A DNA stretch of 64,000 nucleotides from contig CM000153.2 of NCBI GenBank assembly GCA_000004695.1, forward strand, positions 224,001-288,000. Direction: 5' to 3'. Source of the stretch: Dictyostelium discoideum. Taxonomy: Eukaryota. Made by a program: the position numbers and the translations under genes. Of this stretch, positions 17,040-22,513 are shown in pieces (position 1 is the stretch's first letter; each line of letters opens with the position of its first letter). Under the pieces are notes generated by a model. The model was given only the letters and a program-made list of their open reading frames with translations, did no database searches and was not told where the DNA came from.

Positions 17040-18540
17040 ATTGAAACTACAATTTACATTAAAATATTAACCTTTTTTGAAGTCAGTTTCAATCTAAGTT
17101 CTTTTATTAAATTTCTATCATGTTTTTTCTTGTAGTAACTATAAATAGTAATTGTTGATACTGTGAGAATTCGTAAGAAACCACAAACTACAATTGCTGA
17201 AATTTTGGTTTTTGAAAAATTACTTGAATCATTTAATGAACAAATTGAATTAATAGAATTTTAAGGTGTACCAACTAATATTGAAAAGTTAGGATCAATT
17301 ATAATTTGTTTTTTGAAGTTTGGTACAGAAATACCAATAAATGATTGAGATTGAGATGCACTATCAACAATATTCATTGATGAATCTTATTGAACATTTT
17401 CAATTGATCTTGGAATTGAATCGATTAATGCACTTTTAATGAATCTACCATATAATGAATGATGGATTTGAAGAATTAATTGATGGTTGAGGAATAATTA
17501 CAATTTTAGACTTAAAATCATTCCTTATCCATGGTGAAATACATGAACAACCTGATGATAAACATACACCTTGTTCGGTCCACCACAATTATTAAAACAT
17601 TATTTTGGCGGGTTTGTTGTTATTGGTGCAAAGTATTGAAATAATTTTTCAACTTTAACTTGTAAATCTCTTTCTTGAAGTGAAACATCTTTAAAACCAG
17701 AACCTTCTCCTAAATCAAATTTAATTAAAGTTTCATTAATTTGTTGAGTATTATTGCAATGACTATCACGAATTTGAATAAATAAATTTGAAAATGTATT
17801 ACCAAAGTATCCATATAAATAAGCTGTTCCTCCATTTTCGTAAGTTGAGTTAATCGAGTCAATATAGATCCTTGGGTTTTCAACAACAGTTCCATTTGTT
17901 TGGTTATCACATGCACAAACACCAATTGATAAATCACATACACCGTGGGATTGAGAACAATTATTTAAGCACAGGGTAAATGTATATTCAAATAAAAATG
18001 GTGAAAGGTATGAAGATATTCCATCTGTTATTGTAATAGATTGATTGCCAGAACCTGGAGGTGTTAAAATTTCAATTTTCGTTGGATTTATTAATTTCGT
18101 ATATTCACATTTTAAATCTCCAATAAAAACTTCAAAATTTGGAACAATTGATCCAAAATCCCCAAATAAATAACCCCTACCACCATTGAGATTACTTGGG
18201 TAATATTGATTTTCAATGATTCACAAGTTTCACCAGTTGTATATTGATCACATTGACACTTTCCATTATAACAAGAGGAATGATTTTGTGCGCAATTATC
18301 ACAATCACAAAAATCTTTACTATCCATTCTAATTTCGTAGTGACATTGTTGGCTCTCTGATGCCGAAATAACAGATATACCCGAAACATTTTTTTTACAA
18401 TTAAAATGAAAATCTGTGACTCTTTTTAAATTTTCATTAGATACTGAACCAGGACATTCAATAACATTTGCATCTGATTTATATCTAATTTGCATAAATT
18501 TAAGAAAAAAAAAATAAAAAAAAATTACCTCACCCAACTA
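17040..18540 (-). pseudogene. truncated, frameshifted paralogue of the downstream IPT/TIG-EGF membrane protein gene (C-terminal TM exon and N-terminal Cys-rich region retained; internal ~490 bp and repeat units deleted)
   Basis: 17040-17470 aligns to 19310-19740 and 17470-17700 aligns to 20230-20440. 17700-18540 aligns to 20460-20760 joined to 21480-22000. The copy has in-frame stops (taaggtgtacc versus gaaggtgtacc) and indels (tttcaatgattcacaag versus ttttcagttgattacaag). Only short ORFs remain (18112-18537 encodes ...CHYEIRMDSKDFCDCDNCAQNHSSCYNGKCQCDQYTTGETC). Confidence 0.7.
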
Positions 18541-18597
18541 ATTATGTTGTAGAGAATATATTTCAACCCTACAGACTGTAGTGAAAAAGTCCTAAGG

Positions 18598-18720
18598 GAA
18601 CAACAATAATAAAAATAATAATAATAATAATAATAATAATAATAATAATAATAATAATAATAATAATAATAATAATAATAATAATAATAATAATAATAAT
18701 AATAATAATAATAATAATAA
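18598..18720. repeat. (AAT)n microsatellite
   Basis: Long pure aat tract. Confidence 0.95.
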
Positions 18721-18989
18721 TCAATAAATTAATAATATAAAAAAGTAATAAATTAAAAATAAATAATAATAATAAAATAAAAAAATAATAAAAATAATAA
18801 TAATATATAAAAAAATATTTAAAATAATAATAATAAAAAAAAATTACTTAAAAATCTTATCTTATCTAATAAAAAACCAAAGAAAATAAAAAAAACCAAA
18901 TTAAAAAAAAAAATTCTAAAAACCTAAGAAAACAAAAAAAACTAAAAAATATAATTAAAAACAAATTATATTAAATAAGAGTAGGCGTG

Positions 18990-19128
18990 GTATAATAATA
19001 ATAATAATAATAATAATAATAATAATAATAATAATAATAATAATAATAATAATAATAATAATAATAATAATAATAATAATAATAATAATAATAATAATAA
19101 TAATAATAATAATAATAATGATAATAAT
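18990..19128. repeat. (AAT)n microsatellite (source of the spurious poly-Tyr minus-strand ORF 18971-19231)
   Basis: Long pure aat tract with a single aatgat interruption. Confidence 0.95.
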
Positions 19129-19330
19129 AATAATTATTATTTAAATAAATAAATAAAAATAAAAAAAAAGAAAGAGATATAGATTTGTTACTACTTTTTA
19201 TTATTATAATTATTAATATTGTTATTTTCAATTAAATAATTATACTCTTAAAAAAAAAATTTTTATATCTCCAATTAATATTAAAATCTGTTTAAAATAA
19301 AAGTTGATCATTTAAATTGGAAACTAGAAT

Positions 19331-22300
19331 TTACATTAAAATATCAACTTGTTTTGTAGTCATTTTTAATCTTAGTTCATTTATTACATTTCTATCATGT
19401 TTTTTCTTGTAGTAGCTATAAATTGCAATTGTTAATACTGTGAGAATTCCAAAGAAACCACTAATTACAATTGCTGAAATTTTGGTTTTTGAAAAATTAT
19501 TTGAATCATTTAATGAACAAATTGAATTAAAAGAATTTGAAGGTGTACCAACTAATATTGAAAAGTCAGGATCAATTATAATTTGTTTTTTGAAGTATGG
19601 TACAGAAATACCAATAAATGATTGAGATTCAGATGCACTATCAACAATATTCATTGATGAATCTAATTGAACATTTTCAATTGATCTTGGAATTGAATCG
19701 ATTAATGCTCTTTTAATGAATCTACCATATAACGAATGATTATCAACTTGAACTTTTAAATAATTTGAATCATCTCCATTTGATGTTTCTCCAAATTCTT
19801 TATCTGCACAAATTTCACTTGTTTTATTTACTGAAATCGATGCTTTCATTATTAATTGTAGTTGATTTAATTTACTTAAAAATTTAAATTCTGAAATTTC
19901 AATTGTATATTTAATAGATGATGGGTTCATTTTAATAACTTGATTACCAAATTCAAAGTCAGCTTCTGTTTTAAACCATTGTAATGTTACTGTAACATTT
20001 GTATTTAATCCTGAATTTTTAAAGTTTGTTTTAAATTGGCTTGTTTCTGAATTTATTATTTTAAATTCCCATTCTTTAAATGTAAATGAATTTACTTCTT
20101 TAGAATTAAAATCTAATTCTCTTAATTTTACTATTGAAATTAAAGAAATAAATAATTTATTTTCAATTTCTTTATTTGTATTGTTAATTGATTCAAAAAG
20201 TGGTATTTCAGTTATTGGATTTGAATAATTAATAGATGGTTGAGGAATATTCACAATTTTATACATACAGTCATTCCCTATCCATGGTGAAATACATGAA
20301 CAACCTGACGATAAACATACACCTTGGTTGGGTCCGCCACAATTATTTAAACATGGTTTTGGAGCGTTTGTTGTTATTGGTGCAAAGTATTGAAATAATT
20401 TTTCAACTTTAACTTGTAAATCTCTATCTTGAAGTAAAACATCTTTAAAACCTGAACCAATTCCAACATAACATTTTATTAGAGTTTCATTAATTTGTTG
20501 AGTATTGTTGCAATGATTATCACCAATTTGAATAAATAAATTTGAAGTTGTATTACCAAAGAATCCATATAAATAAGTTTTTCCTCCATTTTCATCAGTT
20601 GGGTCAATTGAGTCGATATAGATTCTAGAGATTTCACAACCTGTTCCATTAGTTTGACTATCACATGTACAAAAACCCGTAAATAAATTACATTCTCCAT
20701 GAGGTTGAGAACAATTATATAAACAAGGAACATTTATATATTCAAATAAAATTGGTGAAAGATATGAAGATACTCCATCTGTTATTGTAACATTTTTAAA
20801 ACCAACTCCAGGAGGTACTGAAATTCTAATTGTTGTTTCATTTACCAATTCAATTTCAGTACCTAATGTTTCACCAACAAAAATAGTGAAATTTGGAATA
20901 ATAAATTGGAATTCACCATTTATATAACCAACTCCACCAATAATTGTTGTTGAAATTATTGAATCAATTTTAATATTTAAAAATTCACAACCTATTCCAT
21001 TGGTTTGATTATCACATGTACAAACACCTAAAAATAAATTACATTCTCCATGAGGTTGAGAACAATTACCTAAACAAGGAACATTTATATATTCAAATAA
21101 AACTGGTGAATCGTAGGATGAAATTCCATCTGAAATATTAACTTTTTTAAATCCATTATCTGGTAGTACTGAAATTCTAATAGTTGTAGCATTTACCAAT
21201 TCGACATCTGTACATAATGTTTCACCAACAAAAACTTTGAAATTTGGTGTCATAAATCGAAAATCACCATTTAAATAACCAACTCCACCATTAATAGTTG
21301 TTGATATAATTGAATCGATTCTTATATTTAATAATTCACAATTTGTTCCAAAAGTTTGATTATTACATGAACAAACCCCAATTGCTAAATCACAATTTCC
21401 ATGAGGAGGAGAACAATCATTTAAGCATGTAGTAAATGTATATTCAAATAAAATTGGTGAATGGTATGAAGATATTCCATCTGTTATTGTAATAGATTGA
21501 AAGCCAGAACCTGGAGGTGCTAAAATTTCAATTTGTGAAGGATCTATTAAACTCGTATATCCACATTGTATAACACCTATAAAAACTTGAAAATTTGAAA
21601 CAATAGACCCAAAATCCCCAAATAAATAACCCCTACCACCATTAATAGATGTTGAGATTACTTGGGCAATTTTAATTTTCAGTTGATTACAAGTTTCACC
21701 AGTAGTATATTGATCACATTGGCATCTCCCATTATAACAAGATGAATGAATTTGTGCACAACTATCACAATCACAAAACTCTTTACCAACCATTCTAATT
21801 TCGTAGTGACATGGTTGGGTCTCTAATGCGAAAACAACGGTTTTTTCGGGAACATCTTTATCGCAAGTAAATAGGAAATCGGTGACTCTTTTATATTTCT
21901 CATATGCTGTAGGGTCAGCACAAGTTGAAAGAGCTCCATCAACAACTGTGGCTTTATATGTAACTTGTATTATATTATCGCTAAAAATAACATTAAAAAG
22001 AGAACCTAAATCGAATATTTCACTTGAAGAAAGTTTTTGGCAAATATTAATCCCTATTCCATTACATTCAACCAAAGGGGAATTTGTACAAAAGTCAAAA
22101 TAAATATTAGATTCATATGTACCAACAAAACCCATATCAACAACATATCTTATATTTTTAAAAAAAAAAAAAAAATTAATAAAATTATTAATAAAAAACA
22201 ACTAAAATATATACTTATACTTACGGTTGGGTGGTTCTAGTTTAAAAAAAAAAAAAAAAAAAAAAAAAAAAAAAAAAAAAAAAATCAATATAAAATTAAT

Positions 22301-22513
22301 ATATAATTATAATATAATATAAAAATTATTTTCTAACAACCTAAAAAAACTATATTATTATTGTTTTTTATTTTATTTTAATAAAACTTACAAATTAAAA
22401 ATTGGTTCAAAATCAATCACTGAATCTTTAATTGCATTTTTAAAACTACATATTGATCCATTGATATTAAAAAATGAACTAAAAAATATATAAATAAATA
22501 AATATATTTGCAT
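19331..22513 (-). CDS. type-I membrane protein with an N-terminal Cys-rich/EGF-like region, three or four tandem IPT/TIG-plus-EGF-like units, a TM helix and a short cytoplasmic tail (tgr-like architecture); exon 1 ~22392-22513 (signal peptide), exon 2 ~19331-22148
   Basis: Exon 1 reads ATG-MQIYLFIYIFFSSFFNINGSICSFKNAIKDSVIDFEPIFN, then a gtaag donor. The acceptor ...ataag|ATATGTTGTTGATATGGG joins in frame to the 956-aa ORF. The repeated unit is IDSIISTTINGGVGYLNGDF...FKVFVGETLCTDVELVNATTIRISVLPDNGFKKVNISDGISSYDSPVLFEY (IPT/TIG consensus) followed by CLGNCSQPHGECNLFLGVCTCDNQTNGIGCE (EGF-like). The TM segment is AIVISGFFGILTVLTIAIYSYYKKK. Confidence 0.65.

Follow-up and report, generated by a model that had tools for sequence, protein, structure and literature searches.

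A predicted lectin-headed ComC-type receptor gene and its decayed tandem paralogue between pikB and enolase in Dictyostelium discoideum AX4

The stretch of DNA analysed here (the window; 64,000 nucleotides, AT-rich, ~22% GC) comes from chromosome 4 of Dictyostelium discoideum AX4 and carries two neighbouring, minus-strand copies of a gene for a putative surface receptor. Gene A (19331-22513), which has the AX4 database entry DDB_G0283143 / Q54RJ9, is intact and consists of three exons encoding 983 amino acids (aa). Copy B (~16999-18537) is 78-94% identical to gene A, truncated at its 5′ end and disabled. The pair is flanked directly upstream by a PI3-kinase open reading frame (ORF) of 1857 aa (23398-28971), which we take to be pikB from its length and the PI3K Pfam matches of its counterpart in another isolate (L005), and an enolase exon is found at 1751-2269. 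The original prediction, made from the letters alone, had placed here an intact receptor-like gene with IPT/TIG and EGF repeats beside a frameshifted tandem paralogue; the coordinates, the ORFs and blastn all agree with this view.

Gene A runs from an ATG at 22513 to a TAA stop at 19331-19333 and has GT-AG introns. Its first exon (22392-22513), defined by the ORF and a GTAAGT donor after 22392, encodes the start codon, a hydrophobic N-terminus taken as a signal peptide (aa 1-20) and the first strands of the N-terminal domain; the product is identical to the N-termini of two database models, P0002 and P0021. It is followed by a mini-exon of only 12 nt (22225-22236; AACCACCCAACC), which lies between an AG and a GTAAGT and encodes TTQP. 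The mini-exon is included in the NCBI model P0002, and equivalent residues occur in the orthologues P0003 and P0004, but it is omitted from the AX4 reference model. Exon 3 (19331-22148) is a 939-codon open frame that contains all the rest of the protein, including the transmembrane (TM) helix; there is thus no separate terminal TM exon of the kind that had been proposed. The 983-aa model is 100% identical to P0002. In a near-identical strain assembly (L002), which aligns to positions 9308-32551 of the window at 99.6%, there are no substitutions in either gene A or copy B.

The N-terminal region had been described as a Cys-rich/EGF-like domain. It is better accounted for by a mannose-6-phosphate receptor homology (MRH, or P-type lectin) domain followed by one EGF module. 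The MRH domain begins within exon 1, at about aa 22, and its exon-3 part (aa 46-170) is encoded by 21773-22148. The domain has the flattened β-barrel fold of MRH proteins, and the top 19 matches in a search with it were all MRH proteins (CD-MPR, CI-MPR repeats, Elapor1, OS-9/Yos9, GNPTG and glucosidase II beta). A profile built from 12 homologues matched CI-MPR sequences with an E-value of 1.5e-8, and the UniProt name of the AX4 entry is 'MRH domain-containing protein'. We base the MRH identification on the fold search, the PDB profile search and this name. In MPRs, mannose is contacted by a Gln, an Arg, a Glu and a Tyr of the MRH domain. Gene A has a putative sugar-contact set of the same composition, namely Q82, R132, E154 and Y160. 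Q82, R132 and Y160 are invariant among the 12 homologues and align with Q348, R391 and Y421 of CI-MPR domain 3, and E154 is present in 10 of the 12.

The stalk that follows begins with an EGF-like module of six Cys (aa 171-200; 21683-21772), all of them invariant in the alignment; this module gave only a weak Laminin-EGF match and has a pLDDT below 50 in the AF2 model. Next come three tandem units of 117 aa (aa 201-551; 20630-21682), each composed of an IPT/TIG fold and a six-Cys EGF, and a fourth, divergent IPT/TIG unit (aa 552-640; 20363-20629). At the DNA level, TRF detected a period of 351 bp in 2.9 copies over 20633-21655, with 77-81% matches, in keeping with the three or four repeats of ~115 aa that had been predicted. 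Pfam gave no TIG match at E<=1 on the whole gene A protein, and TIG is weak on the three tandem units (13.9 bits for unit 2). The fourth unit, scanned alone, passed the gathering cut-off of 20.9 bits with a score of 22.4 (E 1.2e-4), and in the 79% identical orthologue P0003 TIG was matched over four stretches with an E-value of 1.8e-15. The IPT/TIG profile check thus came out as the original prediction would have it. The AF2 model of the repeat region shows a seven-strand pattern, and its first Foldseek matches are the IPT/TIG domains of Met, plexin, EBF and CAMTA; as the model of aa 438-935 (TIG unit 3 through the supersandwich domain described below) has low confidence (pLDDT 48), we take these matches as weak support and did not use its supersandwich part. 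Together, the profile scores and the repeat structure support the IPT/TIG plus EGF units as real modules.

The membrane-proximal part of the protein is a module shared with ComC. A DUF7949 EGF-like module (aa ~644-675; 20258-20353) matched Pfam PF25820 with an E-value of 7e-11 (42.5 bits vs. a cut-off of 27), or 6e-12 on the unit alone. It is followed by a ComC supersandwich domain (ComC_SSD, PF22933; aa ~706-910; 19553-20167), with an E-value of 2.1e-17 (63.9 bits vs. a cut-off of 24). This domain accounts for the ~300 aa that separate the TM helix from the last EGF, a region that the original prediction had passed over. The TM helix itself (aa 935-958) and a 25-aa cytoplasmic tail (KKKHDRNVINELRLKMTTKQVDILM), both read from the sequence (19334-19480), are as predicted, and the tail is nearly invariant across the 12 homologues.

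A profile search of 1.84 billion representative proteins returned 1106 relatives, of which 400 reach E<=1e-30. In nearly all of them the match is confined to profile positions ~635-977 and lies at their own C-termini, i.e. the DUF7949 EGF, the SSD, the TM helix and the tail. The ComC_SSD part is common to more than 400 clusters of ComC-type proteins, and a DUF7949 EGF directly N-terminal of the SSD, followed by a TM helix and a short tail, is found in the same order in P0019/20, P0036, P0043, P0046 and others. Gene A is not ComC proper, since it has neither the LRR_ComC head, nor the two ComC beta-sandwiches, nor the long EGF array. Only a few relatives are full length and MRH-headed, and these belong to the D. 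discoideum species group. By its predicted domain set, gene A is a member of the ComC superfamily with a lectin head, and very probably not a Tgr protein, because it is not among the named tgr genes and has different domains. The gene was already catalogued and the family already known; in its architecture, gene A is a variant of that family with a lectin head.

The MRH/TIG-EGF/ComC_SSD subfamily also occurs in a second tandem cluster, next to a DAGAT gene at an unrelated locus of isolate ACTFIW (L003; GCA_054859355.1, JBTAPG010000020.1, 10001-22894). Its members are ~53% identical to gene A, with intact and truncated copies mixed; the homology search yielded no such protein from AX4. Elsewhere in the family, the gene model of P0008 (D. 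dimigraforme ACTA71_008948), one of four tandem paralogues, contains transposase Pfam matches (PF01609, PF13359), which suggests that a transposon may have inserted in or beside this copy.

Copy B aligns with gene A in three colinear blastn blocks with E-values of 0 to 1e-164, far beyond chance: B 18437-17889 with A 21903-21345 (82.5%), B 18096-17463 with A 20850-20216 (84%) and B 17463-16999 with A 19740-19273 (92.5%). By content, the 5′ block (17889-18537) encodes the C-terminal half of the MRH domain, an EGF, TIG unit 1 and another EGF, with no signal peptide. The middle block (17463-17888) contains the divergent TIG unit and the DUF7949 EGF and is 88.5% identical to A 20639-20216. The 3′ block (16999-17462; 92.5-93.6% identical to A) retains the last third of the ComC_SSD, the TM helix, the tail, the stop codon (17054-17056) and ~55 nt of 3′ untranslated region. 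Exon 1, the mini-exon and the first ~60 codons of exon 3 are missing; a search at the truncation point for a tRNA or for a repeated end of a transposon found neither. The frame is broken by a 10-nt deletion at ~18188, within the 5′ block, and by a 1-nt deletion at ~17574, and there are three in-frame TAA codons, at 17602-17600 (Pro in A), 17389 (Leu) and 17263 (Ser), in line with the predicted stops and frameshifts. At the junction at 17463, 476 nt are missing relative to A (20215-19741), which is not a multiple of 3. The predicted loss of ~490 bp is therefore confirmed in substance; the accompanying loss of several repeat units is not, as the two-TIG form is ancestral (see below). Homology to a paralogue, frame-breaking lesions and the loss of the start codon and signal peptide class copy B as an unprocessed pseudogene of a shorter sister paralogue with two TIG units, which we call the c2 type. 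Most of the spacer between A and B is an (AAT)n microsatellite of ~177 units (18605-19134, TRF).

The history of the pair was examined by comparing the interval between pikB and enolase across isolates, as the original prediction had proposed. In AX4, an intact A and a broken B are followed by a 13-kb segment (3480-16467) not found at the corresponding locus of ACTFIR (L001) or ACTFIW (L005). ACTFIR instead has four copies: c1, the orthologue of A, c2, c3 with five repeats and c4 with a large internal deletion. The same four copies are present in ACTFIW, where c2 keeps its SSD and c4 is nearly full length. ACTFIZ ('cf. discoideum', L004) has two full copies and a partial one, with a downstream flank that was not identified as enolase. 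Thus, the divergent isolates have three to four copies with different ones broken, and the number of intact copies is one in AX4 and two to three in the others, with the second cluster lying elsewhere. Isolates vary both in how many copies they have and in which of these are intact, so the birth-and-death turnover predicted for this tandem cluster, by duplication, loss and pseudogenisation, is real. The comparison isolates are ~4% diverged from AX4 in the flanks, which argues for a divergent lineage and led us to drop the idea that ACTFIR and ACTFIW are ordinary conspecific isolates; what is compared here is lineages rather than populations.

In trees of the 5′ half, B groups with ACTFIR c2 (86%) and A with c1 (94%). 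B and the c2 copies of ACTFIR and ACTFIW have three in-frame indels in common, including a junction of TIG unit 1 to the last unit with a 3-nt insertion. The two-TIG form is therefore ancestral to the c2 paralogue rather than a product of decay. The disabling lesions, on the other hand, are all lineage-specific. ACTFIR c2 has other frameshifts and a 497-nt deletion whose ends are unlike those of the 476-nt deletion in B, while ACTFIW c2 is interrupted by a single TAA and lacks a deletion of the 476-nt type. It follows that c2 was still functional in the ancestor that AX4 shares with the divergent isolates and died independently in each lineage. Judged from these lesions, its inactivation is independent and recent, which fits the historical dN/dS (non-synonymous over synonymous divergence) of 0.3-0.4 on the B lineage.

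A different pattern is seen at the 3′ end. Over the last 410 nt, ACTFIR c1 and c2 share 98.5% identity, compared with 81% for their 5′ parts, which indicates that gene conversion homogenises the 3′ end (the end of the SSD, the TM helix and the tail) of neighbouring copies within a genome. Between gene A and its ACTFIR orthologue, dN is 0.048 and dS 0.144 over 938 codons (dN/dS 0.34). Gene A is thus under purifying selection, with no sign of diversifying selection of a Tgr-like kind. The 3′ end of the adjacent pikB (23398-24137) has a dS of 0.048, based on only seven changes, so that dS in gene A is about 3-fold higher. Over the last 71 codons of A the pattern is reversed, with a dS of 0.023 and a dN of 0.062 in a small sample. 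The excess of dS over pikB and the pattern in these last codons may both result from gene conversion among paralogues, although the numbers are small.

The AX4 reference model of DDB_G0283143 (P0021, 1230 aa) offers another view of the locus, in which A and B are one gene and the spacer an intron. It splices from the ATG|TAA stop of A, using a GTAA donor that overlaps the stop, over the ~850-nt spacer to an AG acceptor in B, then removes the 10-nt frameshift with a second intron and ends at the premature TAA of B at 17602. Such a donor and acceptor do exist, and analogous fused models were produced by gene predictors in two other assemblies, ACTFIR (P0001, 1321 aa) and ACTFIW (P0171, 1891 aa). 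The fused partners vary among the assemblies, however, as would be expected of a predictor artefact. The fusion is also topologically implausible, because the disulfide-rich MRH, EGF and TIG modules of B would fall after the TM helix and tail, in the cytosol. The supposed intron is mostly (AAT)n microsatellite, the second intron is ad hoc, all 12 homologues terminate at the same ...ILM stop, and a newer NCBI annotation of the near-identical strain splits A and B. We therefore consider a single gene scarcely credible, and the 1230-aa product is very probably an annotation artefact. Every copy at the locus (19331-19336, 17054-17059 and the copy ends in ACTFIR and ACTFIW) ends in ATT TTA ATG TAA, where G|TAA mimics a GTAA splice donor; it is this look-alike that gene predictors took up in joining adjacent copies in at least three assemblies. 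P0001 had also been a candidate for a highly polymorphic allele of A (78% identity); the locus comparison showed that it is a different paralogue, c3 fused to c4. A second alternative is that copy B still works and makes a small truncated protein, perhaps a decoy or regulator: a 266-aa product (P0022) is among the NCBI predictions, there is a 141-aa ORF with an ATG at 18112-18537, and the B lineage has a dN/dS below 1, with values of 0.30-0.42 in the 5′ blocks. This protein would be a half-MRH plus EGF fragment that needs disulfide bonds but lacks a signal peptide, with the MRH domain cut in the middle and its Gln-bearing half lost. For the 266-aa model to work, an intron has to coincide with the frameshift, and the orthologous copies in other isolates are broken elsewhere, which indicates dispensability. 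A working copy B is accordingly very unlikely.

The third alternative is the one contained in the original prediction, which assigns the pair to the kin-recognition Tgr family (TgrB1/TgrC1-like) and attributes its turnover to selection for polymorphism in self/non-self recognition. The Tgr family has 63 named members, described as having a TM segment and IPT/Ig E-set repeats only (bioRxiv 10.1101/2025.10.22.684067); their genes lie in clusters with pseudogenes, evolve by birth and death and often form head-to-head pairs, tgrB1/C1 being hyper-polymorphic (bioRxiv 10.1101/2025.10.22.684067). Gene A does have a signal peptide, a TM anchor and several IPT/TIG domains, its cluster contains pseudogenes and varies in content between isolates as described for tgr clusters, and its synonymous divergence exceeds that of pikB. 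However, its ectodomain is not made of IPT/Ig E-set domains alone: the MRH head, five EGF modules and the ComC_SSD make up more than half of it, and the DUF7949 plus ComC_SSD combination is shared with ComC instead. The homology search gave only ComC-type relatives, none of them named tgr, and the AX4 gene is called 'hypothetical / MRH domain-containing'. The copies are same-strand tandems rather than head-to-head pairs. In the sequences compared, neither extreme polymorphism nor diversifying selection is seen: dN/dS is 0.36-0.48 in the MRH and TIG parts and 0.34 over the whole gene, and the two lab-type sequences are identical. Thus, birth-and-death turnover is supported and diversification for self/non-self recognition is not, and we give a Tgr identity of the pair very little probability.

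The explanation that we favour, and consider likely overall, is that two copies are left here of a tandem cluster lying between pikB and enolase, A being an intact gene for an MRH-headed ComC-type receptor and B a dead c2-type copy. From the outside in, the product of gene A comprises the MRH domain, an EGF, three IPT/TIG-EGF units, a further IPT/TIG, the DUF7949 EGF and ComC supersandwich, the TM helix and the 25-aa tail. It is a predicted type I surface glycoprotein that probably acts as a lectin-type receptor in adhesion or recognition. Its distal MRH head could bind mannose-type N-glycans, possibly phosphorylated, on other cells, on the matrix or on prey; the rigid TIG/EGF stalk would set the reach of the head from the membrane, and the conserved SSD-TM-tail module might couple to a partner shared by the ComC superfamily.

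Several points weigh against this reading. No MRH-type family model scored in the Pfam scan of gene A, and in the hidden Markov model alignment E154 falls one position off E416 of CI-MPR domain 3. Sugar binding is deduced from the fold and the four residues, and for the stalk and SSD the AF2 model is of poor quality, so that the TIG fold is argued mainly from profile scores. A literature search on DDB_G0283143 yielded nothing useful. The dN/dS below 1 on the B lineage fits a recent death, but taken alone would leave room for a residual function of the 141-aa 5′ ORF. Lastly, the comparison isolates may be a cryptic species.

A broader idea is that MRH-headed ComC-type proteins serve as Dictyostelium surface receptors for mannose-type N-glycans, possibly methyl-phosphomannosyl ones, with variation in copy number and integrity giving strains different glycan-recognition repertoires. 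We regard this as speculative and unlikely. If true, such variation could affect adhesion and the recognition of prey or partners, as a lectin-based system parallel to Tgr. The locus holds no major surprise for the field, but the MRH identification points to mannose-type glycans as a concrete ligand class that can be tested for this uncharacterised surface protein, and the same paralogue has been inactivated independently in different lineages. The most useful outcomes are this identification, the evidence for independent inactivation and 3′-end gene conversion, and a corrected gene model, in which DDB_G0283143 encodes 983 aa and includes the 12-nt mini-exon, and the pseudogene is separate from it.

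Some observations concern the surroundings of the pair. The AX4-only 13-kb segment, in whose place ACTFIR and ACTFIW have c3 and c4, contains three putative surface-protein genes (4583-7752, 11690-12349 and 13163-14614) and a retro-element integrase fragment (~8444-11030). Signal peptides and glycosylphosphatidylinositol (GPI)-like hydrophobic tails, judged by eye, bear out the prediction that these three neighbours are secreted or GPI-anchored; a Pfam search with them gave no match. Part of the first gene (6789-7361, minus strand) has a motif like the C-terminal half of an MRH domain (...RNYYFQCDENQEF...DDCNVDVYIKTKYVCP), which matched the family profile in hhalign with a probability of 33% and an E-value of 4e-4. 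There may thus be a second lectin-like surface gene in 4583-7752, 12 kb away; a brute-force splice model of this gene proved unreliable and was dropped. The enolase exon differs from its ACTFIR counterpart (~16900-17700 of L001) by nine nonsynonymous and two synonymous changes, which is odd for enolase.

Comparison with known systems places the parts of gene A in different company. Like Plexin, Met and Ron, it has a serial IPT/TIG extracellular stalk, and these are the best Foldseek matches of the repeat region, albeit with a low-confidence model; unlike them, it has no Sema or PSI domain and no cytoplasmic kinase or GAP domain, and its IPT domains alternate with EGFs. With the MRH lectins (CD-MPR, CI-MPR repeats, OS-9/Yos9, glucosidase II beta and GNPTG) it has in common the Cys framework, the Gln/Arg/Glu/Tyr tetrad and a CD-MPR-like spacing. 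Identity to them is only 12-22%, below the threshold of every Pfam MRH-type model, and an MRH domain on a TIG/EGF stalk with a ComC-type anchor is absent among the solved MRH proteins retrieved. Tgr proteins resemble gene A in being type I (or secreted), in having several IPT/TIG domains and in lying in clusters with pseudogenes; as described, their ectodomains have no MRH, EGF or ComC_SSD. The closest likeness is to ComC ('communication mutant C', an EGF-like protein) and the DUF7949/ComC_SSD superfamily, which share with gene A a type I, EGF-rich ectodomain, TIG, the DUF7949 EGF, PF22933, the TM helix and a short tail. ComC reportedly acts in intercellular signalling upstream of lagC/lagD, a role that is not simply transferable to gene A; a literature search on comC with lagC returned nothing useful. 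The ComC-type proteins P0019 and P0020 have an LRR_ComC head, two ComC beta-sandwiches and ~14 EGFs, and the commonest relatives (~1350-1430 aa) have DUF7743, DUF7035 and DUF7034 heads, whereas gene A, unlike the other superfamily members sampled, combines an MRH lectin head with TIG-EGF tandem units. The superfamily thus swaps heads on a constant EGF-supersandwich-TM-tail anchor, the head being, in this case, a P-type lectin.

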